Of a stretch of 64,000 nucleotides of DNA, positions 38,501-55,018 are shown piece after piece. The notes beneath the pieces are model-generated. The model made no database searches, was not told the origin of the DNA, and saw nothing but the letters and a program-made list of their open reading frames with translations. The DNA comes from a bacterium (GTDB lineage: Bacteria; Patescibacteriota; CPR2; UBA1875; CAIMLA01): positions 25,638 to 89,637 of the forward strand of contig JBAXUE010000004.1 in NCBI GenBank assembly GCA_037129835.1, given 5' to 3'. Position numbers and translations under genes: made by a program. Numbering within the stretch: position 1 is the first letter of the stretch; each line of letters starts with the position of its first letter.

Positions 38501-38568
38501 TATTCTTTAACCATTATACCTATAAACAACTGGACAGCCAATAGTTTTTCATTGATAATATATAAATA

Positions 38569-39213
38569 ATGCAATATAACAAAATGGATGAAATAAAAGA
38601 AGGCGCTTACATAGGATGGGAAATTTTTAAAACTATTGCCATTATTGGTTTGCTAGTTATATTTTTCAGATTCTTTATTATTCAACCTTTTTCAGTTTCG
38701 GGAAATAGTATGAACCCAGATTTTCAAAATGGTGAATACCTTTTTGTCGACGAAGCAAGTTACTATTTTAGATCCCCAGAACGTGGAGAAGTGATTGTTT
38801 TTAAACATCCAGATCCTCAGCCTTCAAGCAATTGCACAGCTTTTGTTGAAAACAACAAATTTATTACCAAATTTGTTCAGGGTCCTTGTCTAAGTTTTAT
38901 TAAACGAGTAATCGGTATTCCCGGAGATACAGTTATTGTAAAAAATGGCAAAGTAACTGTTAAAAACACTGAAAATCCAGAAGGGCTTAAACTAAATGAG
39001 TCCTATATCGAAACTGGCGTCGAAACCTTAGGCGATCAATCGATTACTCTTCAGAAAAATGAATATTATGTTTTGGGAGATAATCGTCTTCCGGGTATGA
39101 GCTATGATTCTAGAGGTTGGGGAGTTCTACGGAAGGAATTTATTATTGGCAGAGCATGGCTAAGACTTCTACCATCAGAGTCTATCGGCTTTATACCAAA
39201 AGCTAAATACTAA
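38569..39213 (+). CDS. lepB: Signal peptidase I
   Basis: SGNSMNP (catalytic Ser) ... YVLGDNRLPGMSYDSRGWG. Confidence 0.8.
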   Translation: MQYNKMDEIKEGAYIGWEIFKTIAIIGLLVIFFRFFIIQPFSVSGNSMNPDFQNGEYLFVDEASYYFRSPERGEVIVFKHPDPQPSSNCTAFVENNKFITKFVQGPCLSFIKRVIGIPGDTVIVKNGKVTVKNTENPEGLKLNESYIETGVETLGDQSITLQKNEYYVLGDNRLPGMSYDSRGWGVLRKEFIIGRAWLRLLPSESIGFIPKAKY

Positions 39214-39264
39214 AAAGCTTTGCCTTATAAAACAATTGAGTAGTTAAAATTTGAACTAAAATAT

Positions 39265-40119
39265 CTAATTTGAAATTTTCTTTAGTATTCTTTCAAGGTC
39301 TTCGTTATTATAATATTGAATAATGATATTTCCCTTAATACCTTTGTTTTTAATGCTTACTTTAGTGCTCAATGCTTCTGAAAGGGTATTCTCAATAGCT
39401 TGCAACTCTATGTCTTTTTCTGTCGTAACTTTTGAAGCACTTTTTTTAGTTCGCATTTCTGTCTGACGAACATTAAGGCCCTCATTGATAATCTGGTAAA
39501 AAAATGCGATTTGAGCCTCTCTATCGTCAATCGCCATGATTCCCCTAGCATGTCCTTCAGTAATTTTTCCATCCATTAGACCTTGCTTAATAACGGCAGG
39601 CAACGTTAGTAACCGCACTGCATTTGCTACTGTTGATCGCGCCTTCCCGACTTTTCGGGACACATCTTCCTGAGAAAGACTAAATTCATCCATAAGCCTT
39701 TTATAAGAAAGAGCTGCTTCTATGGGACTAAGATTTTCTCTTTGAACGTTTTCGATTATAGCTAGCTCAAATTTCTTTTGCTCATCTAAACTTCTAATAA
39801 TCACTGGTACTGTTTTTATATTTGCAAGCTTTGCGGCCCTTAGTCTTCTCTCCCCAGCAATTAATTGGTAACGACCGTTTATCGATTTAGTGACTAAGAG
39901 TGGTTGGATTATACCATATTCCCGTATCGAAGATGCAAGCTCGGCGAGAGGAGTTTCGTCAAAGCTAGTTCTGGGTTGTAGAGGGTTAGGATCAATAAAT
40001 TCAACACCCACCTCAGAGTCAACTGTTGACCTACTTTCGTCTATAACTGGAATAAGCGAATCTAGTCCTCGACCTAAGCCAAAATGACTTTTACTAAAAG
40101 AATTATTTACTGGTTGCAT
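39265..40119 (-). CDS. parB: Chromosome partitioning protein ParB/Spo0J
   Basis: GERRLRAAKLANIKTVPVII. Confidence 0.85.
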   Translation of the reverse strand: MQPVNNSFSKSHFGLGRGLDSLIPVIDESRSTVDSEVGVEFIDPNPLQPRTSFDETPLAELASSIREYGIIQPLLVTKSINGRYQLIAGERRLRAAKLANIKTVPVIIRSLDEQKKFELAIIENVQRENLSPIEAALSYKRLMDEFSLSQEDVSRKVGKARSTVANAVRLLTLPAVIKQGLMDGKITEGHARGIMAIDDREAQIAFFYQIINEGLNVRQTEMRTKKSASKVTTEKDIELQAIENTLSEALSTKVSIKNKGIKGNIIIQYYNNEDLERILKKISN

Positions 40120-40874
40120 TTAAAGTGTACCTCCTTAGCTAGCTGCTTATATGCAACTGCTCCCTTTCCAAATTTATCATAATTCATAATGGTTTTGCCG
40201 TATGACGGAGCTTCTGCCAATCGTATATTTCTAGGTATAATTGTATCAAATACTTTATTTGGGAAATGTTTTTTTACCTCAGATTCAACTTGCCTTGATA
40301 ATAAAGTGTTCTTATTATACATCGTGAGTAGTACTCCAAGTAGTATTAAACTTGGGTTTAGGCTTATTCTGACTCTTTGAACAGTATGAAGTAATTGGCT
40401 TAAGCCCTCTAGGGCATAAAACTCTGTCTGTACCGGTATCAAGATGCTGTCTGCACTTACTAACCCATTTACAGTTAATATACCCAGGGAAGGCGGTGAA
40501 TCAATAATCACGTAGTCGTATTCGTCTTTAACTTTATCGATTGCCTGCTTCAAACGATGTTCTCTGGCGATTTGACTAGCAAGCTCCACTTCTGCAGCCG
40601 CTAAAACGACACTCGCAGGCGCAAGGTCGAGTCCTTTTACATCTGTCTTAATCCTTATATCCCGAATCAATGTCTCGCGAACCAAGACATCATATAGACT
40701 CAGTTTGACACTATTTTTATCAATACCAAGACCGCTTGTTGAATTACCTTGTGGATCTAGGTCGATTAACAAAACTCTTTGACCTGACTTAGCAAGATAC
40801 CCAGCAAGATTAACGGTTGTGGTTGTTTTCCCAACCCCACCCTTTTGATTAGTTATTACGATTACTTTTGCCAC
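40107..40874 (-). CDS. parA: Chromosome partitioning ATPase ParA/Soj
   Basis: KGGVGKTTTTVNLAGYLA deviant Walker A. Confidence 0.9.
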   Translation of the reverse strand: MAKVIVITNQKGGVGKTTTTVNLAGYLAKSGQRVLLIDLDPQGNSTSGLGIDKNSVKLSLYDVLVRETLIRDIRIKTDVKGLDLAPASVVLAAAEVELASQIAREHRLKQAIDKVKDEYDYVIIDSPPSLGILTVNGLVSADSILIPVQTEFYALEGLSQLLHTVQRVRISLNPSLILLGVLLTMYNKNTLLSRQVESEVKKHFPNKVFDTIIPRNIRLAEAPSYGKTIMNYDKFGKGAVAYKQLAKEVHFKCNQ

Positions 40875-40928
40875 AAGATAATTTTAACAAAATATTAGCA
40901 ATCTATCTAGGGTTCTTTTAGATTAAAT

Positions 40929-41447
40929 CTATTTAATAATAAAAGAGCTATAAAAAATATACAGCGCTCCATTAACATGTAAGTTTAGGGCGGTAGCTAT
41001 AACACAAGCAACGCCTACCGTCATAATAATCATCAGATAAATGAGAAAGAATGTAATTGTCCACTTCATAACTGTATCAATTGTCAAACCCTTTGCGTAT
41101 TGGAAAAACTTTTTTTCAAAATTATCGAAACGCTCTCGATGCTCTTTGGTATATTTTTCTCCGCGCACGCCTTGTTCATATATTTTATTCCACGCTTCTG
41201 CACCTGCCCAAATGCCGAATAATATACCGAGCAAAAAGATGCCTGCGACTAAAAATGTAGCAAACCAAGAAGGCTCTATGCTTGATTGATATACCAATGA
41301 AGCTAATTGAAATACCCCAATAAGCAAAACACTCATTAAGAGCCCTGCAAAAACCCACAAGCAATAATATAATACTTTTTTATCACGTTTAGTCATTTCC
41401 CCTCCTATTTCAATAATAATTATCATATTAATCTTCAAAAAATGCAA
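40929..41447 (-). CDS. Hypothetical membrane protein
   Basis: 172-aa ORF with 3-4 TM helices. Confidence 0.3.
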   Translation of the reverse strand: MHFLKINMIIIIEIGGEMTKRDKKVLYYCLWVFAGLLMSVLLIGVFQLASLVYQSSIEPSWFATFLVAGIFLLGILFGIWAGAEAWNKIYEQGVRGEKYTKEHRERFDNFEKKFFQYAKGLTIDTVMKWTITFFLIYLMIIMTVGVACVIATALNLHVNGALYIFYSSFIIK

Positions 41448-41533
41448 GCAATATATTACAAATCAATAATGATTATATATTTAAAAAAATTTAATCAGAT
41501 AAATCGACTTTTATATTATTATTGTTATTAACT

Positions 41534-41561
41534 AAAAAAGAAGCTATTAAGCTTCTTTTTT
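41534..41561. terminator. Intrinsic terminator downstream of rplU
   Basis: aaaa-AAGAAGCT-atta-AGCTTCTT-tttt: an 8-bp perfect stem with A and T runs on both sides. Confidence 0.6.
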
Positions 41562-41910
41562 ATGGTGATTCTATTTTATTAATTGTGATTTTGGTTAAAC
41601 TCTGGCGATGACCATTCTTGACACGATAGTTTTTGCGTTTTTTGTATTTAAATACGATCTTTTTTGCATCACGGTATTGTTCATCAACAGTAGCGAGTAC
41701 TTTTGAATCGCTTAAAATTGGTTGGCCAATAGATACTTTATCTCCGTCAATAACGAGTAAAACATCCTTGATTTCAAACTTTTCACCAGCTTCAATGTCG
41801 AGTTTTTCTACCGAAAGGTACTCTCCCTCATAAACCAAGTATTGTTTACCGCCGGTGCGAATCACCGCATATTTATTTATTTTCTTTTCAGCCATTTTCA
41901 TTTCCTGCAA
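41560..41910 (-). CDS. rplU: Ribosomal protein L21
   Basis: YAVIRTGGKQYLVYEGEYL. Confidence 0.85.
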   Translation of the reverse strand: MQEMKMAEKKINKYAVIRTGGKQYLVYEGEYLSVEKLDIEAGEKFEIKDVLLVIDGDKVSIGQPILSDSKVLATVDEQYRDAKKIVFKYKKRKNYRVKNGHRQSLTKITINKIESP

Positions 41911-41961
41911 ATTACAACGTGTTATATATTAACATTTATTGTATCTACTTTCAACACTTTC

Positions 41962-43059
41962 TTAAAAATCAATTTTCTTATAACGAATATGTATACTTTC
42001 TAAAATTCCCAGCATGCATAGTGTTACAATTACGCTAGTACCACCTGAAGATAAAAGAGGTAATGGAATTCCAGTTACGGGCATTATCCCTAGATTCATT
42101 CCGATGTTGATAAATATGTGAAAAAATAAAACAGAGAATATTCCGGTAGCGACAAACATCCCAAAATAATCTCTTGCTAGCTGTGCTATTCTTAGTGCTC
42201 TGTATAGAATTACTCCAAAAAGCAGTATAACGGAAAAAGCACCGACAAAGCCCATCTCTTCAGCAAGCGCAGCAAAAACAAAATCAGTATGCTTAAAAGG
42301 AACAAAGTTGAGTTGGCTTTGTGGTCCTCTCCCGAGACCCCTGCCCCAAAATTGACCCGAACCAATAGCGATAATAGCCTGATTAACATTCCAACCGCTA
42401 CCCATTTTATCTGCAGTGGGATCTAAAAAAGTTAGAATACGTTGTTTTTGATATTCTTGTAAAACACTATATATTGGATATAAGCTAAACAAACCAACAA
42501 AACCCATTGTGGCAATATAGACTTTACGGATATTGCTGACTAGTAGCATAGACAACCAAATGATGCCGAAAGTTATTGCAGTGCCTAAGTCTGGCTGCCA
42601 AGCAACAAGCCCAATAGGCACGCCGATATATACAAGTGATAGCAAAATAGTTTTGGGGCGGTTCATTTGCTCAACATTCTCAGCAAAAAATTTCGCCATA
42701 ACAATAATCATAAATATCTTTGCTAATTCAGATGGTTGAAACTGAAACCCACCAATACTAATCCAGCGAGTCGCACCTAGTGCCTTTTGACCTAAAAATT
42801 TTGTAGCCAGGAGCATAACTACCGAAAGTAAATATAATATTCCTGAATAATTTGTGTAAACACGATAATCTATTCTTGCGATAATAACCAGCCCAATTAA
42901 ACCTATCGTAGCAAACAAAAGTTGCTGTAAAGCTTCTGAGCCACCAGCCAAAGTGAATGTTGTGCTATATATAATAGCAAGCCCAAAAATAAGAAGCAAC
43001 AAAGCTGAACCCAACAATATCCAATCAAAATTTTTGTAAAATCTAGAGAACCTATTCAC
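41962..43059 (-). CDS. SEDS family peptidoglycan glycosyltransferase (RodA/FtsW)
   Basis: 365 aa, 10 TM helices, conserved periplasmic loop motifs. Confidence 0.8.
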   Translation of the reverse strand: MNRFSRFYKNFDWILLGSALLLLIFGLAIIYSTTFTLAGGSEALQQLLFATIGLIGLVIIARIDYRVYTNYSGILYLLSVVMLLATKFLGQKALGATRWISIGGFQFQPSELAKIFMIIVMAKFFAENVEQMNRPKTILLSLVYIGVPIGLVAWQPDLGTAITFGIIWLSMLLVSNIRKVYIATMGFVGLFSLYPIYSVLQEYQKQRILTFLDPTADKMGSGWNVNQAIIAIGSGQFWGRGLGRGPQSQLNFVPFKHTDFVFAALAEEMGFVGAFSVILLFGVILYRALRIAQLARDYFGMFVATGIFSVLFFHIFINIGMNLGIMPVTGIPLPLLSSGGTSVIVTLCMLGILESIHIRYKKIDF

Positions 43060-43061
43060 AG

Positions 43062-46000
43062 CTATCTTTTTAATCCTATGCTATACTCATGGCCGTCAAT
43101 AATAATATTTTCATTATAGTCTGTTTCTGGTAAATTACCGAATACTACTTGGGTTGCCAGTGTTTCTTTTTTTAAATATTCAAGCCATTTTACGGATATC
43201 TCTCTTTGGAAATTTTTGTCGTCAGATTTGATATACACTTGTATCCTATCGCTTACACTGTAATTTGCTTTTTTCCGTGCATCTTGAATTTTGCGTATAA
43301 ATTCTCTGACCGTACCCTCAATTTTTAACTCCTTTGTTAGTGTTGTATCAAGAATTATTAACACTTCACCTTCATTGGAAGAAATTTTATTAGAATCTTT
43401 TGATATTAACCTTGTTATTATTTCTTCGCCAGTGAAACTTTCGCCAAGAACATTGTAATCCCCCGAGTCTACACTATAATCACCTTTTTTTAGAGCTTCC
43501 GATATTTCTTTTACTCTATTTCCCAATCTAGGCCCGACTAGTTTAAAATTGATATTAACACTTAATTCAACGTCGCTGGAATTATCTAGATTTTTCCCTA
43601 AAACATTCACTCTTTTTACATTTAATTCTTCTTTTATTGAGTCTACTATTGTTTCAGAAAAATAATCTTTATTAACGCCATACACATCTATTTGTCCAAG
43701 GGCTTGCCTAACGTTAATTTTTTCTTGCGCCCTAAGTTTCAATCCCAATTCCACAACCTTTCTTGCAAGGTGTATCTCGTTGTTTATTTTTAAATCAATT
43801 TGAGATTTTACCGCTACTGGCCACTCGGATAAGTGAATCGAGGTTGGTGGTGTGCTATCTCCTCCTTTTGATAAATTCTGGTATATCGCCTCAGTTGTAA
43901 AAGGCATAAATGGTGCCAGCAACTTTATATATGTGGTAAGGACGTAATAAAGTGTCTCATAAGCCGCTGCCTTGTCGGTATCGTTTTCGCTTTTCCAAAA
44001 TCTTCTTCGGTTACGACGAATATACCAATTAGACAAATTATCAATAAACTCAGCAAGTAGTCTTGAAACCTTAGATAAATCATAATCATTAAAAGCATCC
44101 GTCACATTATCTATCAATTGATTTGTTTCAGATATAATCCAATAGTCCATTTTATTATCTCTTTGCAGTTCACCGCTAGGTTTAAAATTATCAATATTCG
44201 CATATGTGACAAAAAAACCGTAAGAGTTCCAAAGGGTTAAAATGATTTTCTTTACCACTTCTTCTACACCTTTTTCTGAAAAACGAAAATCTTCAGCTTT
44301 AACTGCTGGTGACGCCATAAGATAAAATCTAATTGCATCAGCACCGTATTTATTAATTAATTCCATTGGATCTGGGTAATTACTTAGCTTTTTAGACATT
44401 TTTTGCCCATTTTCAGCCAGTATAATGCCATTAACAATTACGCTTTTATACGAGGACTTGCCGAATATAGCAGTAGATAAAACTAATAATGAATAAAACC
44501 AGCCTCTTGTTTGATCTACCCCCTCGGCAATAAAGTCGGCGGGATAGTCAAGAGCAAATTTATCTTTATTTTCAAAAGGATAGTGAATAGAACCATACGG
44601 CATACTTCCCGATTCAAACCAACAATCAAACACTTCGCCAGATAATTCCATATCGTGTCCACAGCTACATTTATAAACTATATTTTGAATTTTATGTAAG
44701 TGAATATCAGTAATAACCTTCCCTGTCTTTGATTCAAGGTCCTTAATAGAGCCAATAACCTCAACTTTCGCACATTCATGACATTTCCAAACAGGTAAAG
44801 GTGTTCCCCAAAAACGGTTTCTCGAAATACTCCAATCAGGTGCATTCTCAATAAGTTTATTAAACCTATTATGCCCCATGCTATCAGGAAGCCAATAAAT
44901 ATCCTTATTATTCTTAATCATCTCAGGTTTAATCTTCTCGACTGCCACAAACCAACTAGACACACCCTTGTAAATAAGAGGGGTGTCACATCTCCAACAA
45001 TGAGGATATGAATGTGTTATTGTTTCTGTTTTAAAAATTTTATTACCAAGTTCTGTGATAATTCGTTGATTTGTCTCAAGGGCTATTACGCTCGAACCTG
45101 AATAATCCGTAACATCAATTGTAAATCTCCCGAGATCATCTACGGGCATAAAAAAATCTATCCCATGTGCCTTCGCTACTTTATAATCTTCTTCTCCAAA
45201 AGCTGGGGCGGTATGTACAATGCCTGTTCCATCTGAAATATTTACATGTGTACCATCAATAATCTCAAAAGCTTTTTTGGGATTTTTGTAATAATTAAAA
45301 AGCTGCTTGTATTTTTTCCCAACCAGTTCTTTTCCCAAAATTCTCGAAACAATCTCATAATCACCAAATTCGTTTTTGTATGATTCAATACGATCAGTGG
45401 CGATAATAAATCTAGAATTATTTGAACTAACAATAGAGTATTCAATCTCGGGTCCAACAGAAAGAGCCAGATTACCTGGCAAGGTCCATGGAGTAGTAGT
45501 CCATGCTAATAAATACGTATTTGGCTCTTCTGAAATTTCGAATTTAACAGTAATTGCCTTATCTCTTTTGTCTTTGTAGCCTTGACCTACCTCGAAATTG
45601 GACAAAGGAGTGGAGCATCTAGGGCAGTACGGCATTACCTTATGACCCTCATATGCAAGATCTTTATCATATAATTGCTTAAATACCCACCAAACAGATT
45701 CCATGTACTCCGGGTTCATTGTCAGATAGGCCGCTTCCATATCTACCCATCTACCAGTTCGAGCCACTATCTTCTTCCAATCATTTGCATAAGCAAGGAC
45801 CTTGCTTCTACAGAGCTCATTAAACTTATCAATTCCATATTCTTCTATTTGAATTTTACTTTTGATATCAAGCTCTTGTTCTACTATATTTTCGATAGGC
45901 AAGCCATGAGTATCCCAACCCCATATTCGTTCAACTCTATATCCCTGCATAGTTTTAAAGCGAGGGATAACATCCTTTATGGTGCCTGCCAACAAATGCC

Positions 46001-46172
46001 CGTAATGAGGGGTTCCGGTAGCAAAAGGGGGTCCGTCATAAAATGAAAAAACTTTTTCTTTACTCTTAGTGTCTACTGATTTTTCAAATATCTTATTGTC
46101 CTCCCAATACTTGAGCATTGCAGCTTCTAGCGCGGGGAAATTCTGTTTTGGATCTACCTTATTGAGACTCAT
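43062..46172 (-). CDS. ileS: Isoleucyl-tRNA synthetase
   Basis: HIGH motif (PHYGHLL) and KMSKS motif (KMSKKLSN); 1036 aa. Confidence 0.9.
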   Translation of the reverse strand: MSLNKVDPKQNFPALEAAMLKYWEDNKIFEKSVDTKSKEKVFSFYDGPPFATGTPHYGHLLAGTIKDVIPRFKTMQGYRVERIWGWDTHGLPIENIVEQELDIKSKIQIEEYGIDKFNELCRSKVLAYANDWKKIVARTGRWVDMEAAYLTMNPEYMESVWWVFKQLYDKDLAYEGHKVMPYCPRCSTPLSNFEVGQGYKDKRDKAITVKFEISEEPNTYLLAWTTTPWTLPGNLALSVGPEIEYSIVSSNNSRFIIATDRIESYKNEFGDYEIVSRILGKELVGKKYKQLFNYYKNPKKAFEIIDGTHVNISDGTGIVHTAPAFGEEDYKVAKAHGIDFFMPVDDLGRFTIDVTDYSGSSVIALETNQRIITELGNKIFKTETITHSYPHCWRCDTPLIYKGVSSWFVAVEKIKPEMIKNNKDIYWLPDSMGHNRFNKLIENAPDWSISRNRFWGTPLPVWKCHECAKVEVIGSIKDLESKTGKVITDIHLHKIQNIVYKCSCGHDMELSGEVFDCWFESGSMPYGSIHYPFENKDKFALDYPADFIAEGVDQTRGWFYSLLVLSTAIFGKSSYKSVIVNGIILAENGQKMSKKLSNYPDPMELINKYGADAIRFYLMASPAVKAEDFRFSEKGVEEVVKKIILTLWNSYGFFVTYANIDNFKPSGELQRDNKMDYWIISETNQLIDNVTDAFNDYDLSKVSRLLAEFIDNLSNWYIRRNRRRFWKSENDTDKAAAYETLYYVLTTYIKLLAPFMPFTTEAIYQNLSKGGDSTPPTSIHLSEWPVAVKSQIDLKINNEIHLARKVVELGLKLRAQEKINVRQALGQIDVYGVNKDYFSETIVDSIKEELNVKRVNVLGKNLDNSSDVELSVNINFKLVGPRLGNRVKEISEALKKGDYSVDSGDYNVLGESFTGEEIITRLISKDSNKISSNEGEVLIILDTTLTKELKIEGTVREFIRKIQDARKKANYSVSDRIQVYIKSDDKNFQREISVKWLEYLKKETLATQVVFGNLPETDYNENIIIDGHEYSIGLKR

Positions 46173-46174
46173 AC

Positions 46175-46660
46175 TTACTCCTTTTCCTTATCATGACTTC
46201 GTAAATCTATCATAATCATAACCTGATCCCCTTTTCTTAGTTCTGAAAGTGCTTCAGGAATACTTGGAGAAATCGATTCTGTAGAGAAACGATGCTCTAC
46301 CATAGCCAGGACTTTTTCACTACCTACTTGCATTTGAATAAACTTTACCTCATATCCTCTTTCTCTTATCTTAGATACTTCCTGGAGAAACTCGTCAAAG
46401 ATTACGCTTCCGTTCCCCATTCCTTCAAAAGCTGACCTAACCTCAATGTACGACAAGTGTAAAATACAGGTAGCGGGATTATAGTTTGCCTTATACTTTC
46501 CTACCCGCTCACGATAAACATTCTTAATATCTTCACTCCCATCGAAATTTGGATGTAAGGATCTGCGAAAATCGTTATCCAAGAATTCAGCCTTGCTAAC
46601 GTCTATGTAGCCGCTTTCAATAGCTTCACCAAAATTATCTCGAACGTCCTCTGGACACAT
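46175..46660 (-). CDS. Hypothetical protein (161 aa), first gene of the leader-ORF-ileS unit
   Basis: Open frame whose stop (TAA) lies inside the ileS Shine-Dalgarno sequence (AAGGAGTAAgtATG). No family recognised. Confidence 0.4.
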   Translation of the reverse strand: MCPEDVRDNFGEAIESGYIDVSKAEFLDNDFRRSLHPNFDGSEDIKNVYRERVGKYKANYNPATCILHLSYIEVRSAFEGMGNGSVIFDEFLQEVSKIRERGYEVKFIQMQVGSEKVLAMVEHRFSTESISPSIPEALSELRKGDQVMIMIDLRSHDKEKE

Positions 46661-46930
46661 AGAATTTATGAGAACATCTTCAGTACTTTCAGCGTCAATT
46701 GGTACGTGTCTTTCTATTATAACTACTCCTAAATAACAAATACCACACCTGCTCAGGAGCCCTCTCGGACGGTACCATCCTGATTTCAGCGTGTGGAATA
46801 CTTACTTTTCTGCTATTACGGGCTTACCCGTCGGGTTCTAATTGCTATATGCTTTCTTCCCGAAACTCACGGTTGATAGCCGCGTGGAACGTCTTTAGTG
46901 AATTATAACTTGATTATTAACTTTTTTCAA
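46661..46930 (-). promoter_or_regulatory. Sigma70-type promoter plus T-box-like riboswitch leader
   Basis: Minus strand: TTGAAA-17 nt-TATAAT (comp. 46925-46930 / 46902-46907). In the transcript, AGGAUGGUACCG (comp. 46770-46781) matches the T-box consensus AGGGUGGNACCG with one mismatch. It folds as CAGGA[UGGUACC]GUCC-GAGA-GGGC-UCCUG, an antiterminator-type helix with a 7-nt bulge (comp. 46753-46783). The outer helix CCACAC...GUGUGG is followed by UAUUUGUUAUUU (comp. 46731-46742). No ORF is present. Confidence 0.5.
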
Positions 46931-49430
46931 CCGCTTCTGGTGGCAAAATATCTGCACCGATAATTACTTTTTGTCCAGTAACAATACCACCTTCAAGTAT
47001 TTTTCTGGCCACAGAATTCTCAATCATATCCTGAAAAACTCTTCTAATTTCTCTGGCACCAAACTCTGGTTTATAGCCAGCTTCGGCGACTGCCGTTAGA
47101 AGATCTTGATCAAAGTCTATGTCAAAGCCTTGTTCAAGAAGCTTCTTATGTAATTTATCAAAAAATATTTTTGCTATTTGAACAACTTCTTCCTGATTAA
47201 GAGATCTAAAAAGAATAATATCATCGAACCTATTTAAGAACTCAGGTTTAAATAAATTATTATTTTGCAAGAATTCTAGTACTTGTTCTTTTTCTTTAGA
47301 AATATCTTTACCTTCTGCACAGATAGTTCTAATTAGATTAGCCCCAGCATTTGAAGTTGCAATAATAATATTGTTTTTAAACAATATTTTTTCACCCATT
47401 CCATCTGTGATATAACCCTCGTCAAGAAGTTGCAAAAATAAATTAAGAATATCTGGATGCGCTTTTTCTATTTCATCTAATAAAACAACGGAGAAGGGCA
47501 TCTGCCTTGCTTTCTTAACAAATTCACCGCCGTCGAGTTCTTGCTGACCTACAATTTTTTTACCAATAAAACGATCTAGTCCGGAAGTATCTTGGAATTG
47601 ATTCATGTCCATTCTTACCATTTTGTTTTCATCTCCAAAATATGTCGCTGCCAAAGCTTTTGATAGTTCAGTCTTACCTACACCTGTCGGCCCTACGAAT
47701 AAGAAACTTCCCATTGGTCTCTTACTATCACCGACATTTGTTCTAGCCCTTCTTAGCGAATTCGAAACAGCCACTACAGCTTCTTCTTGACCGATTACTC
47801 TCTGATGAATTGTCTTTTCAAGGTTTAAAAGCTTAACCTTCTCAACCTCATCGGCCTCTCTAATAGGTATATTAAAAATTTCTTCAGCTATTTCGTCGAC
47901 AAATTTCTTTGTAACAAATTTGATACCCTTATTCTTTGCGGCGTTAGAAATACTGTTCAATAAATCTATTGCTCTTCCTGGAAAATCCTTAGGAACCGAT
48001 TGGCTTTCTGAAATCTGATAAATTTCCTTTAAGGAATCATAGGTGATTGATTGTCCCTTGACTGCAGCCAAATATATACTTATATCTTCCATAGATTGAA
48101 TTGTTTCATTTTTATTTGTTGGTTCTACTTGTATCACAGAAAGCTTCGAAGCGATCCCACCTTTGGGCTGTATATATGTAGAATAGCTTGCCTGGTCTGT
48201 GGCTGCAATTAATTTAAAATCTGATCTTTCAAGATATTTATTCAATACGTCAGAAGCATCGATTGAAGAGATTGTTTCATTACCCTTTAAAAATACTTCA
48301 AAATTATCAATAAATAAAATAATATTCCCCGCTCTTACAGTATCGTTAAACGATGCTGTTAAATTCTCTAACAATTCTTGAGGAGATGCGCTTGAAGACA
48401 TCATAACCTGAGCATCAAGTGCCACTATTCTTTTATACATTAAAGCTGGCATCACTTTACCCCAATATATATTTGCTGCCAGCTCCTTTACTATTGTACG
48501 TTTTCCGACACCTGCCCTACCAAGCAATATACAACTATTACTACTATCTCCTGTTAAAACATTTTGTAATTGCTCTAGTAAATGTTCTCTAGATTTTATA
48601 CTGATACCATTAAAACTATTTGGCACTGTATAATCGACACCGAACCTGTCAAGAGTAAGAGTATATCCAGAAGACCAGTTTTGAGCAAAGCCACCGTTAG
48701 AAACTAATAATTTTTCAGAAATAGTTTTAGGCCTAGAAAATTTTGAAAATAGATTTTTGCTCCAAGAAATAATATTGACCAAGTCTTCTTCATTAAGATC
48801 TATGGACATTAAAAATTCTTGTATTGCAGGATTCTGTTTCAATAAAACATAAAATAAGTCAGCCTTTGTAATGTAATTTACTGCAGGTTCTTTGAGGGCC
48901 TGTTCGAGCATTAAACTAAAAATATTCAAACCATCAACGGCTCCAAAATTAATTAATTTATTTATCGTTATCTTGTCTCCTGCTACTCCCATCTTACTAA
49001 GAATAAACATAATTTCGTTTGATTTGGAGAACAATTTAGCCAAACCAGTAAAATTATTTTTTAAAAGATATTCATCCATAATATAAATCGTATCAAAATC
49101 GCAAAGAGTATAAATCTCATCAATACTTGTAACGCTCTCGGGTAATTTAATTTTATCTTCATTCTCGACAAAATAATGTCGTACGAATGTTAAAAAGTAA
49201 TATATAGAAAGACCAAAAAATATAGATATATTCAATACGTAATTAGGTATAATCTTCGCTACTTGTCCAAGAGCTGTAAATTGAAATAATTTTATAAATA
49301 TAGCAAGTCCGCCCAAAACAATTAGTAATCTTAAAATTTTGTCCAAAAGACGATACTTCTTGAACTTAAAATAAAAAGCAGCAGATAGGGCTGTTTCTCT
49401 AATTTTGTGATCTGCCTGAACCATCATACT
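46917..49430 (-). CDS. ClpB/ClpC-like double AAA+ protein with N-terminal transmembrane segments and a degenerate first nucleotide-binding domain
   Basis: D2 is canonical (GPTGVGKT; LLDEIEKAH). D1 has GRAGVGKRT and ILFIDNFE in place of Walker A and Walker B. The N-terminal ~100 aa are hydrophobic. The track ORF extends to 49487, but the ATGATG at ~49430 overlaps the upstream ORF stop (ATGA). Confidence 0.7.
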   Translation of the reverse strand, partial: SMMVQADHKIRETALSAAFYFKFKKYRLLDKILRLLIVLGGLAIFIKLFQFTALGQVAKIIPNYVLNISIFFGLSIYYFLTFVRHYFVENEDKIKLPESVTSIDEIYTLCDFDTIYIMDEYLLKNNFTGLAKLFSKSNEIMFILSKMGVAGDKITINKLINFGAVDGLNIFSLMLEQALKEPAVNYITKADLFYVLLKQNPAIQEFLMSIDLNEEDLVNIISWSKNLFSKFSRPKTISEKLLVSNGGFAQNWSSGYTLTLDRFGVDYTVPNSFNGISIKSREHLLEQLQNVLTGDSSNSCILLGRAGVGKRTIVKELAANIYWGKVMPALMYKRIVALDAQVMMSSSASPQELLENLTASFNDTVRAGNIILFIDNFEVFLKGNETISSIDASDVLNKYLERSDFKLIAATDQASYSTYIQPKGGIASKLSVIQVEPTNKNETIQSMEDISIYLAAVKGQSITYDSLKEIYQISESQSVPKDFPGRAIDLLNSISNAAKNKGIKFVTKKFVDEIAEEIFNIPIREADEVEKVKLLNLEKTIHQRVIGQEEAVVAVSNSLRRARTNVGDSKRPMGSFLFVGPTGVGKTELSKALAATYFGDENKMVRMDMNQFQDTSGLDRFIGKKIVGQQELDGGEFVKKARQMPFSVVLLDEIEKAHPDILNLFLQLLDEGYITDGMGEKILFKNNIIIATSNAGANLIRTICAEGKDISKEKEQVLEFLQNNNLFKPEFLNRFDDIILFRSLNQEEVVQIAKIFFDKLHKKLLEQGFDIDFDQDLLTAVAEAGYKPEFGAREIRRVFQDMIENSVARKILEGGIVTGQKVIIGADILPPEAVEKS

Positions 49431-49804
49431 ATTTCCCAAAAAATATTGATAAAAGCCAAAACAACTAAGGCTGGTAGAAAAGCCCATGCAATAATTAAAA
49501 ATATTGAGAAAATAATGTAAGAAATTAAACTCAAAATATAGGCTAGTATTAAAAGAGTTCTAACCACGAAACCGACACCTCTAGAAATTAAGTTATCGAA
49601 AAACCAATCCCTAAAGGCATATATTCCTTTGCCTCGACTCATTGCCATTCTTTTCCATGGGGAAAACAAAGTTTTTATAATAACAATGATCGAAAAATTA
49701 TTATTTAAATTTGAAAATAATGCTTTTAGAAAATATAATAAATCACTGGGGGCTTTTGAATACCACCAGAAAAATGAATATGGGAAAAAATATAATACTT
49801 CCAT
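49424..49804 (-). CDS. Small polytopic membrane protein translationally coupled to the ClpB-like gene
   Basis: 126-aa hydrophobic ORF whose stop overlaps the downstream start. Confidence 0.35.
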   Translation of the reverse strand: MEVLYFFPYSFFWWYSKAPSDLLYFLKALFSNLNNNFSIIVIIKTLFSPWKRMAMSRGKGIYAFRDWFFDNLISRGVGFVVRTLLILAYILSLISYIIFSIFLIIAWAFLPALVVLAFINIFWEIV

Positions 49805-49829
49805 AACTTATATATATAATAATAAATAA

Positions 49830-51140
49830 ATGAGTAATATGCCAACAGAAAATTTTGTAACGATCGAAAAAATTATCCCAGAAGGAAGATCTTTGGGTCA
49901 CATTGAAGGTAAATCAGTATTGATTTGGGGTGGACTACCTGAAGAAAAAGTAATTGTGGATGTATATAAAAACAAAAAAAGTTTTTCAGAAGCACGTCTA
50001 ATTAGGGTTGTCGAACCATCTCCGATTAGAATAAAAGAACGCGAAAATCATTACCTGATATGCTCTCCATGGCAAGTGCTTCCATATAATTCTCAAGTTG
50101 CTATAAAAAAATCGCTACTAAAACAAGCCTTCTTAGATATTTGTGATTATAATATTACTGATATAAATTTTTGTGAATCGACCACAGAATATGGTTATCG
50201 AACAAAACTTGAATTTAGTTTTACGGTCGACAAAACCGGAAAAATAGCTCTTGCCTTCCACAAAAGAGGCGTAAATAATGAATATGAAATTATAAAGGGC
50301 TGCTTACTCGGGTCTGATAAAATGAACCTTGCTGCCAGAAAAATAACCGCTGAATTAAACAAGGATTCCAATATCAATTACAAGGGGTTAAAGAGTCTGG
50401 TTATACGAGAGAGCAAAACCAATAATCAAATTATCGCCATATTGTATTATAAATTTAAGGAATTTAAATTTAATATCAGGCTGTCTGATCTCGGTGGTAT
50501 TGTTGACGGTCTATATATAGCTTATTCAAGCATTAAATCCCCCATTTCAGTTATTACAGAACTTATATATTCTGAAGGGATAAATTATCTCGAAGAAGAT
50601 ATCTTAAACTTAAAGATCAGATACCCTTTCGACGGCTTTTTCCAAAACAATATACCTTTATTCGAAAAAACATTAACGGAAATTATAGCGAGTACACCAA
50701 AATGCAACAGGATAGTTGAGCTATATAGCGGCGTTGGTTCTATAGGATTAGCTCTTTGCGACAAAGCAAAAGAAGTGATGGGGCTAGAGATTGTCGACTC
50801 GGCAGTCGAATATTCTGAGATAAACAAGAATGTAAACAAAATTAACAACTACAAAGCCATAGCGCTTGCAGACTATAAAATTACTTTAAATATACTAGAA
50901 GAAGTTGATGTTTTAGTTTTAGACCCACCAAGGTCAGGACTACACCCTAAAACAACTAAGCTAATAATCGACACTAAACCTAAAAAGATAATATACCTGT
51001 CCTGTAACCCTAGCACTCAGGCGAGGGATTATAAAATCTTAAGTCAGGAATACAAGATAGAAAAAATCACTGGGTACGATTACTATCCTAACACATTCCA
51101 TATGGAATCTTTGTTGGTTCTGGTCCCGATAGAGAAATAG
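49830..51140 (+). CDS. rlmD: 23S rRNA (uracil-C5)-methyltransferase RlmD/RumA family
   Basis: N-terminal TRAM-like region, a SAM-MTase fold with VLDPPRSGL, and a C-terminal catalytic Cys region. Confidence 0.7.
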   Translation: MSNMPTENFVTIEKIIPEGRSLGHIEGKSVLIWGGLPEEKVIVDVYKNKKSFSEARLIRVVEPSPIRIKERENHYLICSPWQVLPYNSQVAIKKSLLKQAFLDICDYNITDINFCESTTEYGYRTKLEFSFTVDKTGKIALAFHKRGVNNEYEIIKGCLLGSDKMNLAARKITAELNKDSNINYKGLKSLVIRESKTNNQIIAILYYKFKEFKFNIRLSDLGGIVDGLYIAYSSIKSPISVITELIYSEGINYLEEDILNLKIRYPFDGFFQNNIPLFEKTLTEIIASTPKCNRIVELYSGVGSIGLALCDKAKEVMGLEIVDSAVEYSEINKNVNKINNYKAIALADYKITLNILEEVDVLVLDPPRSGLHPKTTKLIIDTKPKKIIYLSCNPSTQARDYKILSQEYKIEKITGYDYYPNTFHMESLLVLVPIEK

Positions 51141-51142
51141 CC

Positions 51143-51376
51143 TCAATTATTGTATTTATCAAGCCTGACAATTTTGTTCGAGTTTCTTTGACCACTTATA
51201 ATCTTTACCTCTGTAACTCTTAATGAAAATTTTTCAGCCAGCAACCTAATTATTTCAGTATTTGCCGAACCTTTATGAGGTAAAGACTTTACTTTAACAA
51301 GGTAGTAACCGCCATTCTCAACATATTCTATATTCGAATCATTTTTACCCGTTTTGACCTTAATAGCTATGTTCAT
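51143..51376 (-). CDS. YggU/DUF167 family protein
   Basis: 77 aa, KSLPHKGSANTEIIRLLAEKF, typical of UPF0235. Confidence 0.5.
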   Translation of the reverse strand: MNIAIKVKTGKNDSNIEYVENGGYYLVKVKSLPHKGSANTEIIRLLAEKFSLRVTEVKIISGQRNSNKIVRLDKYNN

Positions 51377-51634
51377 TTATAGAAAATATTCTGCAATAAT
51401 AATCAAAGCTTGCAGGACCAAATATACTATAATTGGTGAAAGATCCATCACGCCACCCATAGGTGGTATAACTTTTCTAACTGGGGCCAAAACAGGTTCC
51501 GTGGCATTGAAAACGAATAATCTAAAACGCAAAAGCTTAAGTGGCACAAAACTTAATAATATTCTTGTGAATAACAGTAATATAAATATATTACTAAAAA
51601 TATTTAAAAAATTTAAAATAAATTCTTTAACCAT
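51377..51634 (-). CDS. YggT/Ycf19 family membrane protein
   Basis: LLSFVPLK...FNATEPVLAPVRKVIPPMGGVMDLSPII. The track ORF starts at 51703, but the Met at 51634 avoids overlap with the upstream ORF. Confidence 0.5.
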   Translation of the reverse strand: MVKEFILNFLNIFSNIFILLLFTRILLSFVPLKLLRFRLFVFNATEPVLAPVRKVIPPMGGVMDLSPIIVYLVLQALIIIAEYFL

Positions 51635-51635
51635 C

Positions 51636-51887
51636 CTAGACCCTCGAACTAACCTCTGAATAAGATGGGGTCGAATCCTGCCATCCCTCAATATAAGAAC
51701 CATCTTCTCTTACAATCACTAGGGCTGGAGGGTTATAAATATCATATAATTGTGCAACCGAGTTTGTATCTGCATCCTCCCATTCTAGATACTCTACCTG
51801 TTTACTCTCTGCCTCCAGCTGCTTTCCAATTTCTAAGAAGCTTCTGCATTCTGGACCGTCATCATTAATAAATATCAGTGCTTTCAT
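51636..51887 (-). CDS. Small hypothetical protein (possible thioredoxin-like fold, single Cys)
   Basis: 83-aa ORF upstream of yggT/yggU. Confidence 0.3.
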   Translation of the reverse strand: MKALIFINDDGPECRSFLEIGKQLEAESKQVEYLEWEDADTNSVAQLYDIYNPPALVIVREDGSYIEGWQDSTPSYSEVSSRV

Positions 51888-51899
51888 AATTACTCCTTG

Positions 51900-53723
51900 C
51901 TATTCAACTGTTACGCTTTTTGCTAAATTTCTTGGTTTATCGACATCCAAATTTTTTGCCACTGCTACATAATACGCAAAAAGCTGTAGCTGTGCCACGG
52001 CGACTAACGGTGTGAGCATTTCCAATGTCTTTGGAATATAAATTACGTCATCGGCAACCCTTGTTGCTTCTTTTGCACCTACCGTGGTTAGCACGATAAC
52101 TTTTCCTGATCGCGCCCTGATTTCCTCAACGTTTGAAATTCCTTTTTCATACACACTATCCTCTGGAATAAGTGCAAAGGTAGGGAAGTTCTTGTCTATA
52201 AGAGCAATCGGTCCATGTTTCATCTCCCCACTAGCGTAACCCTCAGCGTGTATATAAGAAATTTCTTTTAGCTTCAACGCACCTTCTTCTGCTAAAGGGA
52301 AACAATATTTTCTACCTAAATACATAAAATGTTCGAAGTCTTTATATTTATTAGCAAGCTTCTCTATTACAGCAGTATCCTTTAAAATCTTTGATACATG
52401 ATCTGGTACCTTCAAAAGCTCCTTCAGTATATCTCGACCTGTCGCCGCACTCATTTGTCGCTGACGACCAAGCATAACAGCAATAAGTATCAATACTGTT
52501 ATTTGTGAGGTAAATGCTTTTGTTGAAGCGACGGCAATCTCTGGTCCAGCATGATTATAGACCCCCGCATCTGTTTCTCTGGCAATCGTAGAGCCGACAG
52601 CGTTAACGATACCCAGAGTGAGAGCACCTTTTTTCTTTGCTTCCCGAATCGCAGCAAGTGTATCGACGGTTTCACCAGACTGGCTAATTGCAAGTACAAT
52701 AGTATTTTCATTAACAATTGGACTACGGTATCGAAATTCAGAAGCATATTCTACTTCAACGGGAATCCCGGTATATTCTTCAATAATATACTCACCCACT
52801 AGCCCTGCGTAGCGGGCAGTGCCACAGGCAACAATAATTATGCGCTCTATTTTCCTTAATCTATCTCTAACTATTTCTAGTCCACCGAGCTTCACATCAC
52901 CTTGATCTAATAATATACGGCCCCTAGTGGAGTTTTTAATTACATCTGGCTGTTCCATGATCTCTTTGAGCATATAATGAGAATAACCACCCTTTTCTGA
53001 CTCTTCTAGCGTCCATTCTACTTCATTTATCGCGGACTTTACGTCATTTTTATCAAAATCATATATCCTGTAGTCATTTTTATGAATATCAACCACCTCA
53101 CCATCATTCAGATATATCACTTTATTGGTGTGGCCAAGAAAGGCAGATACGTCTGAAGCGACAAAAAACTCGTTATGTCCTACCCCAAAAATAAGTGGGC
53201 TTCCCATTCTCGCCGCTACTAGCCTGTTCGGTTCATCTGCGTGAACCACGGCTATTCCATAAGCGCCTCGTACTTGCTTGAGAGCCTGCTGAACCGCTTC
53301 GAGCAAGTCGCCCGCGTATAACTTACCAATAAGGTGCGCCAACACTTCGGTGTCTGTGTCAGAGTGAAAAATATTTCCTTCTGCTAGCAAAGCTGTCTTG
53401 ATCTCCTGATAGTTTTCTATTATGCCGTTATGGACCAAAGCCAATTTGCCATCATTAGATAGGTGGGGATGTGCATTCCTTTCGGTTGGTACGCCATGTG
53501 TGGCCCATCTAGTGTGGCTAATACCAACTTTTGCATTTCCGCAAATAGTTACCTTCTTTTCAAGCTCAACTATCCTACCGACTGCGCGAGTGACTTTGAT
53601 TTTTCCTCCCTCGACGATAGCAATACCCGAGGAATCATAACCCCGATATTCAAGCCGCTTCAAACCCTCTAGTAAAACATTATTTACATTTTTATCGCCT
53701 AAATAACCAACAATTCCACACAT
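51900..53723 (-). CDS. glmS: Glutamine--fructose-6-phosphate aminotransferase
   Basis: MCGIVGY N-terminal nucleophile and two SIS domains. Confidence 0.9.
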   Translation of the reverse strand: MCGIVGYLGDKNVNNVLLEGLKRLEYRGYDSSGIAIVEGGKIKVTRAVGRIVELEKKVTICGNAKVGISHTRWATHGVPTERNAHPHLSNDGKLALVHNGIIENYQEIKTALLAEGNIFHSDTDTEVLAHLIGKLYAGDLLEAVQQALKQVRGAYGIAVVHADEPNRLVAARMGSPLIFGVGHNEFFVASDVSAFLGHTNKVIYLNDGEVVDIHKNDYRIYDFDKNDVKSAINEVEWTLEESEKGGYSHYMLKEIMEQPDVIKNSTRGRILLDQGDVKLGGLEIVRDRLRKIERIIIVACGTARYAGLVGEYIIEEYTGIPVEVEYASEFRYRSPIVNENTIVLAISQSGETVDTLAAIREAKKKGALTLGIVNAVGSTIARETDAGVYNHAGPEIAVASTKAFTSQITVLILIAVMLGRQRQMSAATGRDILKELLKVPDHVSKILKDTAVIEKLANKYKDFEHFMYLGRKYCFPLAEEGALKLKEISYIHAEGYASGEMKHGPIALIDKNFPTFALIPEDSVYEKGISNVEEIRARSGKVIVLTTVGAKEATRVADDVIYIPKTLEMLTPLVAVAQLQLFAYYVAVAKNLDVDKPRNLAKSVTVE

Positions 53724-53818
53724 AATATAATCTCCTATATATATCTGTAACTAATAATATTTATCAAAAACCGTCCTTCGAATAATTTTCAGTGTATTTA
53801 TTCAATACTCGCTTGATT

Positions 53819-54106
53819 CTATTCTTCATTCTCCGTATCATCTATTGTTTTCTTTATCTCTGATACTAATGTTTCCGCCTGTTCTCGTATTTCTTGAACT
53901 GCAGATTTCTTACTTTTAGAAGCTGGGTTCAGTGGGATTATTATCCAGGCCAGTATATATAAGATCATACCAATTCCAGTAAAAATAAATATTGCAATAA
54001 ACAATCTCAAAATCGAAGCGTTTAAACTAAAATACTCTGCGATACCACCAGCCACGCCCCCCAATATTCTATTACCACTTGAACGATATAGTTTCTTTGC
54101 GACCAA
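53819..54106 (-). CDS. PspC-domain membrane protein
   Basis: YRSSGNRILGGVAGGIAEYF followed by a TM segment. Confidence 0.6.
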   Translation of the reverse strand: MVAKKLYRSSGNRILGGVAGGIAEYFSLNASILRLFIAIFIFTGIGMILYILAWIIIPLNPASKSKKSAVQEIREQAETLVSEIKKTIDDTENEE

Positions 54107-54148
54107 GGCTTACTCCATATAAACTATGATAATTATAAAATATTTATA

Positions 54149-54844
54149 CTAAGTAGACAAATTATTATAGAGTACAACGTTTTTTACATGTTTTTTCATA
54201 ATTTGACATATTTGTTCCATTTCTGACAATGAAAAAGACAATTCGTTTCTAAGATTTTGATTATAGGTTATGTCTGGCCTGAAGCCTTGAACTACATATT
54301 TATTTGCACCCTTGATTAGTTTACCAATATCTTCGAAGTCATTGAGACTATGATAGTATGGCAAAACAGTGGTTCGAAATTCGTATTCAGTTTTAGAACC
54401 CAATAATAAATCTATACTCTCTTGTATAAATTTATTATTCAAATAACCAGAGATATTACTATAATTCTTTAACGGTCCCTTAATATCCATCGCAATATAA
54501 TCAACCAATCCTTGCGACAAAAGTGTGTCTAATATTTTAGGATTAGAGCCGTTTGTATCTATTTTTACTAATAGTCCCATGTCTTTTATCTTTCGAATAA
54601 AACTTACAATATCTCTCTGAATTAATGGCTCGCCCCCGGTTATAACCACTCCATCTAATATATCTTTCCTCTTTTCTAAGTGCTTAAATATTTCTTCTTC
54701 CGATATTAATCCTGGCTTTATTGGAATTAAATCTGGATTATGACAAAAGCCACAACGAAAGTTGCAGCCTTGTGTAAAAACAACAGCTGCAACTTTGCCT
54801 GGATAGTCTATCAAACTAGATTTAATTAACCCCGATAAATGCAT
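54149..54844 (-). CDS. nrdG: Anaerobic ribonucleotide reductase activating protein (radical SAM)
   Basis: CNFRCGFCHNP cluster motif. The ATG at 54844 overlaps the upstream stop as TAATG; the track ORF uses a TTG at 54856. Confidence 0.8.
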   Translation of the reverse strand: MHLSGLIKSSLIDYPGKVAAVVFTQGCNFRCGFCHNPDLIPIKPGLISEEEIFKHLEKRKDILDGVVITGGEPLIQRDIVSFIRKIKDMGLLVKIDTNGSNPKILDTLLSQGLVDYIAMDIKGPLKNYSNISGYLNNKFIQESIDLLLGSKTEYEFRTTVLPYYHSLNDFEDIGKLIKGANKYVVQGFRPDITYNQNLRNELSFSLSEMEQICQIMKKHVKNVVLYNNLST

Positions 54845-55005
54845 TATATGACGCAATTACTCGATTTAAATTCGATGCGGTCATCATATTCTGCCCGTTT
54901 ACCTTCATTCCATTGAGAAACTGGACGTATGTATCCAACCACCCTAGAATAAACCTCACATTTAGTTCTATTTTGTTCTGACCCAGTTGTTACTTCCTCT
55001 GACAT
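54844..55005 (-). CDS. Stand-alone NrdD glycyl-radical domain peptide (53 aa)
   Basis: MSEEVTTGSEQNRTKCEVYSRVVGYIRPVSQWNEGKRAEYDDRIEFKSSNCVI matches the class III RNR C-terminal consensus RV.GY...W.N.GK..E..DR. It is preceded by AAGGAGGGGAT-ATG and lies 13 nt after the nrdD stop in a different frame. Confidence 0.6.
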   Translation of the reverse strand: MSEEVTTGSEQNRTKCEVYSRVVGYIRPVSQWNEGKRAEYDDRIEFKSSNCVI

Positions 55006-55018
55006 ATCCCCTCCTTCT

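Follow-up and report, generated by a model that had tools for sequence, protein, structure and literature searches.

Comparative evidence for a compact isoleucine-specific T-box leader upstream of ileS in Patescibacteria

Introduction

In the stretch of Patescibacteria DNA analyzed here (64,000 nt of contig JBAXUE010000004.1; hereafter the window, to which all coordinates without a locus name refer), a promoter and a leader of about 175 nt occupy positions 46930..46718 of the minus strand. They precede an orphan open reading frame (ORF) and the isoleucyl-tRNA synthetase gene ileS, both on the same strand. Our analysis indicates, with a probability of roughly three in four, that this leader is an Ile-specific T-box, belonging to a compact class of Saccharibacteria-related Patescibacteria, that is transcribed from a promoter of its own and regulates the orphan ORF and ileS. 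The initial annotation had suggested a T-box responding to tRNA-Ile ahead of ileS, and the comparative evidence presented below supports this claim. T-boxes are the textbook case of one RNA reading another, and their switching is understood as two helices competing for one strand. Judged by comparison of its sequence with those of its relatives, the leader appears to be a real tRNA-sensing T-box riboswitch, compact and apparently of an undescribed type. Full-text literature searches, whose coverage was incomplete, returned no T-box riboswitch paper on Patescibacteria or Saccharibacteria, and no paper containing both "T-box riboswitch" and "valS". The T-box database TBDB applied its class II model to Actinobacteria only (PMC7778990).

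Results

Relatives of the leader were gathered from the DNA around homologues of the isoleucyl-tRNA synthetase (IleRS) and by one metagenome pattern scan. The nearest relatives of the IleRS of the window belong to metagenome-assembled genomes of Saccharibacteria and other Patescibacteria, and ten leaders of the same architecture, 46-87% identical to the window leader, were found in related Patescibacteria contigs. Seven of them lie directly upstream of ileS and carry AUC (L084, L002, L087, L088, L089, and the more divergent L091 and L095), while the other three (L081, L082, and L083) lie upstream of valS, identified by NCBIfam NF004349 with 1055 bits, and carry GUC. L084, the closest relative, codes for an IleRS 76% identical to that of the window and shares the ClpB-like/ileS synteny. 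A covariance model built from five relatives with the window excluded (R1) gave a single match in the window, at 46731-46888, with 118.4 bits and an E-value of about 5e-24.

Covariation was evaluated in a model-guided alignment of the 11 leaders (the window and ten relatives), in which 27 pairs of six modelled helices were compared with 500 shuffles. Standard pairs filled 98.3% of the cells, vs 81.5% in the shuffles and 22-41% in slid registers, and 17 of the 27 pairs had changed on both sides; none of the 500 shuffles reached any of the five measures. Compensatory pairs were present in all six modelled helices, the same helices were recovered by RNAalifold in an independent run, and every modelled pair is intact in the window copy. 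Stem I was not amenable to column scoring, as its codon lies one position further 3' in the valS loops than in the ileS loops. These results bear on one alternative, a chance resemblance in which a promoter-proximal hairpin happens to hold a T-box-like 12-mer. Such a coincidence would agree with an Rfam score far under the gathering score, with the unremarkable z-score of the single-sequence fold (-0.16), and with the loose motif RGNTGGNACC, which occurs 3 times in the window vs 1.5 expected. However, ten homologous leaders precede ileS or valS, and the 118 bits to an independent model together with the covariation in six helices already refute coincidence, the probability of which we consider vanishingly small.

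The leader is missed by routine annotation. A scan of the whole window at the Rfam gathering threshold did not detect it. In a permissive scan of 46500-47100 (601 nt), the T-box family RF00230 was the sole family match, with 23.4 bits and E=0.0038, and spanned 46898..46752. The family named in the initial annotation was therefore recovered with local significance, but the score is far below the gathering score of 93 bits. In the alignment to RF00230, 80 Stem I model positions are replaced by 11 nt, and Stem II, Stem IIA, and the T-box core align; Rfam misses the leader because its Stem I is a mere 17-nt hairpin. Every Patescibacteria leader falls below the gathering threshold, and only a Chloroflexi leader (L070) passes it, with 112.5 bits. 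Taken alone, the RF00230 match would be weak evidence of a T-box.

The ultrashort Stem I (46868..46884) was seen in the fold as a 5-bp stem, CGCGG/CCGUG, with the 7-nt loop CUAUCAA, 17 nt in total. The Ile codon AUC (46877-46875) stands in this terminal loop and is followed by A. The stem itself varies compensatorily among the relatives (GCGG/CCGC, GUGG/CCAC, CCGG/CCGG, and CUAG/CUAG). The loop contains AUC before ileS in all eight nested leaders (the window and seven relatives) and in six other Patescibacteria leaders; all three valS leaders have GUC. The specifier thus tracks the regulated synthetase, since AUC before ileS and GUC before valS are found without exception. The initial annotation had offered AUCA and AUUA as specifier candidates; AUC was found in the Stem I loop, but AUUA lies outside it and was rejected, as AUC alone stands in the loop and covaries with the downstream gene. 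The canonical long Stem I, with a K-turn, a specifier internal loop, and a distal tRNA-elbow platform, was not found in the leader. AUC is displayed, but at the tip of a very short hairpin instead of in the Stem I and specifier-loop architecture that had been anticipated.

A pair of relatives links the two specifiers. The valS leader of L083 (860-1020, minus strand) and the ileS leader of L084 (1821-1979, plus strand), which come from different samples, share 95% identity between Stem II and the U-tract, and essentially only their Stem I hairpins differ. This suggests a recent duplication or conversion accompanied by a specifier swap. A valS twin is likely to exist elsewhere in the genome to which the window belongs.

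The core of the leader is a closed discriminator hairpin (46743..46796), which is the minimum free energy (MFE) structure in all 11 leaders, with -23.8 kcal/mol in the window. It is bounded by an outer helix of 6 bp, CCACAC/GUGUGG (46796-46791/46748-46743), in which 3 of 6 pairs are compensatory and which takes the form CCAAGU/ACUUGG in L091 and CCACGU/ACGUGG in L095. This is followed by a CUG/CAG helix (46789-46787/46751-46749), the junction purines AAA (46786-46784), helix A1 with UCAGGA/UCCUGA (46783-46778/46758-46753; 6 bp, 4 of 6 pairs compensatory), the 7-nt bulge UGGUACC (46777-46771), which is invariant in all 11 leaders, helix A2 with GUCC/GGGC (46770-46767/46762-46759; 3 of 4 pairs compensatory), and the loop GAGA (46766-46763). 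The T-box core 12-mer AGGAUGGUACCG was found at 46781-46770, one mismatch off as originally described. The arrangement of A1, 7-nt bulge, A2, and GNRA loop is likewise present, with an A1 of 6 bp rather than 4. The nesting of the antiterminator-like element inside an outer helix, also described at first, holds as well, since the outer helix covaries across the relatives. In the 11 leaders, the free energy ranges from -19.6 to -25.7 kcal/mol for the whole hairpin and from -10.7 to -14.7 kcal/mol for the inner A1 and A2. These values fall in the TBDB ranges for terminators (-19.5±7.9 kcal/mol) and antiterminators (-7.4±4.2 kcal/mol), respectively (PMC7778990).

A Stem III hairpin between the linker and A1 cannot form in any of the 11 leaders folded. 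In its place the order is AGUAAGUAU, CCACAC, nGAA, and A1, and CCACAC pairs with the GUGUGG that lies 3' of A1. The Stem III hairpin has been described as flanked by 5'-RRRxG ... AA-3' and stacked on A1 (PMC7583486), and as stacked coaxially on the antisequestrator (PMC12647780). The purine-rich flanks are kept in the leaders, as AGUAAGUAU and GAA/AAA. Judged by this arrangement, the outer helix would correspond topologically to a Stem III with an opened loop and a sealed nick to A1.

Stem II (46831..46863) has a lower helix, UCGGG/CCCGA (46863-46859/46835-46831), with compensatory change in 3 of 5 pairs, an invariant purine string, AAGAA (46854..46858), a short apical helix (46844..46852) with compensatory change in 3 of 3 pairs, and the 3' side AAUUAGAA (46836..46843). 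GAAGAA and UAGA do not vary among 9 sequences, and a Stem II counterpart, an S-turn with a 5-purine string, is described in PMC7583486. The Stem IIA hairpin, CGGG-UAAG-CCCG (46819..46830), is paired in all 11 leaders. A IIB pseudoknot was recognized by eye, as UGACA:UGUCA in L002, L087, and L088, GAGCU:AGCUC in L091, and AAGC:GCUU in L095. In the window this pairing amounts to 2 bp (GC:GC) vs 4-5 bp in those five leaders, which share no common register for a column test. The single-stranded linker UAAUAGCAGAAAAGUAAGUAUU (46797..46818) contains the purine-rich AGUAAGUAU (46806-46798), which is invariant in 9 of 11 leaders and neighbors variable loops. The linker measures 18-22 nt in all 11 leaders by hand count. 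In the otherwise typical nested ileS leader of L087, an insertion of about 70 nt occupies the apical part of Stem II (~1800-1880).

Several other pairings were considered and rejected. Pairing of the A-rich linker with the U-tract appears in some MFE folds (window, L081, L088, L091, and L095) and is absent in L002 and L084. RNAduplex was used to look for a conserved sequence further upstream that could pair with the 5' half of the discriminator and so form an alternative antiterminator; the partners were inconsistent and were judged to be noise. Within the orphan ORF, 13 nt past an in-frame AUA, GUACCA (46700-46705, minus strand) is a perfect 6-nt complement of the bulge sequence UGGUAC and resembles a tRNA 3' end. 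Its pairing with the bulge was discarded as possible in the window only, and the complement, absent in the relatives, may be due to chance.

The U-rich tract UAUUUGUUAUUU (46731..46742) lies directly 3' of the outer helix, where the initial annotation had placed it. All 11 leaders have at least 6 U among the 8 nt next to the helix, the window having 6 U in 8. The classical terminator score was +3 to +22 in seven relatives and below zero in the window, L081, L091, and L095; the negative scores are due solely to a base other than U at position 1 or 2 of the tail. A generic terminator scanner is blind to the closed hairpin because of its loop limit. Besides the hairpin energies and the U-rich tails, further observations were counted in favor of transcription attenuation as the output. 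The tail UUUUUAUUUAU of L091 and L095 matches that of a bona fide terminator in the canonical Patescibacteria T-box of L049. Beyond the U-tract, valS and ileS paralogues no longer share identity. The distance of the Shine-Dalgarno (SD) sequence from the helix varies between 9, 12, and 22 nt. Finally, an intervening ORF is tolerated in the window and, behind a canonical terminator, in L049. On these grounds transcription attenuation is favored over SD sequestration, and we give it an even chance.

The leader-proximal SD of the window, AGGAG (46730-46726), is followed by a 5-nt spacer and AUA (46720-46718), which translation showed to be in frame with the orphan ORF; this site (46718..46730) aligns with AGGAGUAGGUAUG at the ileS start of L002 and with AGGAGUAAGUAUG at the valS start of L081. 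The relatives have AGGAG-N5-AUG and then the synthetase, whereas the window reads AGGAGUAGUUAUA, with AUA in the place of the start codon. In a translational reading, modeled on Actinobacteria, the 3' strand of A1, GCUCCUGA (46760-46753), would pair with UUAGGAGU (46733-46726) and hide the SD as long as no uncharged tRNA is docked, and docking of tRNA-Ile would keep A1 closed and free the SD. A complementarity of 8 bp is possible in the window and of at least 5 bp in L081 and L082, the SD begins exactly 12 nt past the helix in 9 of 11 leaders, and the known T-boxes with an ultrashort Stem I are translational (PMC7583486; PMC12647780). However, among the 11 leaders checked, this complementarity does not persist in the L002 type (CACCU vs AGGAG) or in L091 and L095 (CCCC), and a compensatory A-U to U-A change in A1 keeps A1 and not the SD pairing. 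The RNA would moreover be constitutively ON, because the closed hairpin (about -24 kcal/mol) far outstabilizes any sequestrator. The SD is 22 nt away in L084, the conserved module ends at the U-tract, and in the window a separate SD, 546 nt further downstream, precedes ileS while the leader-proximal SD faces AUA. We therefore consider SD sequestration unlikely. The initial annotation had called the leader non-canonical and possibly translational; the non-canonical nesting stands, but a translational readout is less supported, as the complementarity between SD and anti-SD is not conserved.

The sigma-70-type promoter (46902..46930) combines TTGAAA (46930-46925), a 17-nt spacer, and TATAAT (46907-46902), with a transcription start site predicted at about 46895. 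It is present as first described, matches the consensus at 11 of 12 positions, and is joint best among 103 sites in 36000-55999 (20 kb); the closest relative, L084, has identical hexamers and spacing. The promoter overlaps the 3' end of a ClpB-like ORF (46917..49487). Divergent from the ClpB-like gene, a second promoter with 11 of 12 matches, TTGAAA-17-TATAAT at 49711-49739 on the plus strand, lies ahead of a 436-aa ORF (49830..51140). No ORF is listed within the leader up to the ATG at 46660, as stated in the initial annotation, and ileS is indeed the second gene of the unit, behind the orphan ORF.

The orphan ORF (46175..46660) codes for 161 aa from ATG 46660, or for 181 aa from AUA 46720, and stops at UAA 46177-46175; 206 codons are open upstream of this stop. 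It had been described as lacking an SD, which is correct for ATG 46660, but the strong AGGAG at 46730-46726 lies 5 nt before the in-frame AUA. The protein matched only itself among 5.8e9 proteins and belongs to no Pfam or NCBIfam family. Sub-threshold matches were zeta-toxin-like (Pfam E=0.15; PDB 1gvn_B E=0.079), and the AlphaFold2 model was uninformative (pLDDT 47). The GC content at codon positions 1 and 2 (GC1>GC2) follows a coding-like pattern, and that at position 3 (GC3) is 0.35 vs 0.25-0.29 in the neighboring genes. The ORF is absent at all ten related leaders, where the synthetase gene directly follows the leader. A direct repeat of the SD-start region around the ORF (10 of 13 nt) was considered as a target-site duplication and rejected, being explicable by the shared SD/start context. 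In L049 (~2560-3000), an ORF of about 150 aa with the Nudix-box-like motif GGAVEGSENEMQALERELNEELE separates the T-box terminator from ileS and parallels the ORF of the window.

The ileS gene (43062..46182 with its SD) has its own AGGAG at 46182-46178 and codes for 1036 aa from ATG 46172; the stop codon of the orphan ORF (46177-46175) sits between this SD and the ATG. Its identity is given by TIGR00392 (974 bits vs a cut-off of 621), and the Pfam domains tRNA-synt_1, Anticodon_1, and DUF5915 were found. The N-terminus aligns from residue 1 with the IleRS of L001 and L002. IleRS relatives of about 1196-1231 aa (P0083, P0087, P0089, P0093, and others) carry an extra PF00300 histidine-phosphatase domain. 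Upstream of the leaderless ileS of L085, a GC-richer, structured-looking intergenic region of 460 nt (1540-2000) had no Rfam match at E<=0.01. Two pattern scans of viral contigs gave chance 14-mer matches only and no T-box. The only RNA family match of the window at gathering level is an L10 leader, RF00557, at 13693-13853 on the minus strand (51.8 bits vs a gathering score of 44).

Discussion

In the proposed mechanism, AUC in the 7-nt loop of the 5-bp Stem I would select tRNA-Ile, and the Stem II purine string and the IIA hairpin would back the short Stem I. In the bulge between A1 and A2, UGGU would base-pair with the free ACCA 3' end of the tRNA. The U of UGGU would pair with the discriminator base A73 of tRNA-Ile and tRNA-Val. 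The closed hairpin and the U-tract would together form an intrinsic attenuator, and charged or absent tRNA would let the outer helix close and so stop transcription. The conserved purine string of the linker is located at the distal end of the outer helix. Should this string have to reach the duplex of tRNA and T-box, as it does in canonical discriminators, geometry might not allow docking and closure together. A fuller form of this scheme has Stem III circularly permuted into a closing helix that completes the terminator, with the docked uncharged tRNA and the linker preventing closure by geometry or tension, so that the leader would turn ON and OFF with no strand swap and no G·U sensing; we regard this form as rather doubtful. 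A steric block of RNA polymerase by the bound tRNA was rejected, reasoning from distance, as about 14-16 bp separate the bulge from the base of the hairpin. The window itself has a weakened U-tract and an orphan ORF inserted after the leader SD, with ileS translated from its own SD. There, ileS could be reached directly only by control at the level of RNA synthesis.

Several points weigh against attenuation by an Ile-specific T-box. No alternative pairing competes with the closed hairpin: no terminator or SD sequestrator shares the 3' strand of A1/A2, and the sole hairpin before the U-tract contains A1/A2. By simple thermodynamics, tRNA docked in the bulge should make the hairpin more stable, an effect of the wrong sign if the hairpin is a terminator, and the geometric-exclusion step is purely inferential. 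The basal pair of A2 is G46770-C46759 in the window, and in the family it is G-C in 9 leaders, U-A in 2, and never G·U, although a basal G·U wobble has been reported to be the primary steric sensor of the aminoacyl group (PMC7583486). The U-tract of the window has A at position 2 and scores -21.6, under the classical threshold, and generic terminator-like sites are not enriched in the genome segment (14 vs 11.1 expected). No tRNA-Ile or tRNA-Val genes that would show the discriminator base were found in the window or in ten loci. Transcriptional T-boxes have also been reported to generally require a long Stem I (PMC7583486); six other Patescibacteria leaders (L009, L024, L047, L049, L055, and L060, upstream of position 3001), with a short Stem I and ordinary terminators, run against this generalization.

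Some of these points lead to a further explanation, that the leader binds tRNA and does not switch. It would then be a folded relic, a means of transcript stabilization, or a partial constitutive attenuator, and regulation in the window would have decayed after the ORF insertion. The absence of a competing structure and of the G·U sensor pair would fit this explanation, as would the weakened U-tract, the AUA at the start position, and the inserted ORF in the window. Several close relatives also have no leader ahead of ileS at all (L001, L003, L085, L086, L092-L094, and L096). However, the specifier tracks the downstream gene, the helices, the bulge, and the purine strings are held by compensatory change at 46-87% identity to the window, and the window copy has all pairs intact. 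A tRNA-binding leader without switching therefore seems quite improbable to us. In the wider division of possible outputs, the share left after transcription attenuation and the smaller part given to SD sequestration falls to no switching or another role.

Taken together, the nested leaders would be evolutionarily maintained T-boxes that are invisible to Rfam annotation and occur in a new host group. In them an ultrashort Stem I, a feature linked until now to the translational control of actinobacterial leaders, would be combined with an output resembling a terminator. Three parts regarded as essential are missing, namely the Stem III hairpin, a competing helix, and the G·U pair that acts as sensor. 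If they work, they would represent a minimal tRNA-sensing module of about 150 nt that couples ligand docking to termination in a different way. If transcription attenuation is indeed the output, an ultrashort Stem I can serve transcriptional control, on a modular scaffold that accepts AUC for ileS and GUC for valS. If they do not switch, they would offer an example of riboswitch decay. The leaders may be of interest to RNA structural biologists and to designers of tRNA-responsive switches, and they would be among the few regulatory elements identified in Saccharibacteria.

Of the known systems, the class II translational ileS T-box of Actinobacteria (M. smegmatis, M. tuberculosis, and N. farcinica; PMC7583486; PMC12647780; PMC7778990) shares many features with the window family, according to the published descriptions. 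Both have an ultrashort Stem I without a tRNA-elbow platform, AUC in the terminal loop, and a position upstream of ileS, which in the window is the long form containing DUF5915. In both, a Stem II purine string and IIA, with a possible IIB, compensate for the short Stem I, and a UGGNACC bulge lies between A1 and A2. However, the window family has no Stem III hairpin, and the strand at the Stem III position forms a closing helix with the strand 3' of A1. It also has no sequestrator more stable than the antisequestrator, and a U-tract follows its hairpin. The basal pair of A2 is G-C and not G·U, the scaffold also serves valS with GUC, and the hosts are Patescibacteria.

Similarly, the canonical T-boxes of RF00230, such as tyrS and glyQS of B. 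subtilis, share with the window family the core, A1, the bulge, and A2, the junction purines 5' of A1, Stem II and IIA, and a hairpin with a U-tract ahead of an aminoacyl-tRNA synthetase gene. The leader of the window departs from them in its score (23 vs 93 bits), in a Stem I of 17 nt vs about 90 nt with neither K-turn nor distal platform, and in the missing Stem III hairpin. In addition, its terminator-like hairpin contains the antiterminator rather than sharing a strand with it.

A further parallel is found in the T-boxes with a short Stem I of other Patescibacteria (L009, L024, L047, L049, L055, and L060), which score 21-40 bits with model R1 and, like the window family, are missed at the Rfam gathering threshold. 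They also have the AUC loop, Stem II and IIA, the core, a U-tract tail, and ileS downstream. The Chloroflexi loci have fully canonical T-boxes (L070). Unlike the window family, the six Patescibacteria leaders retain a hairpin where Stem III is expected, and the 5' strand of their terminator is the 3' strand of A1/A2.

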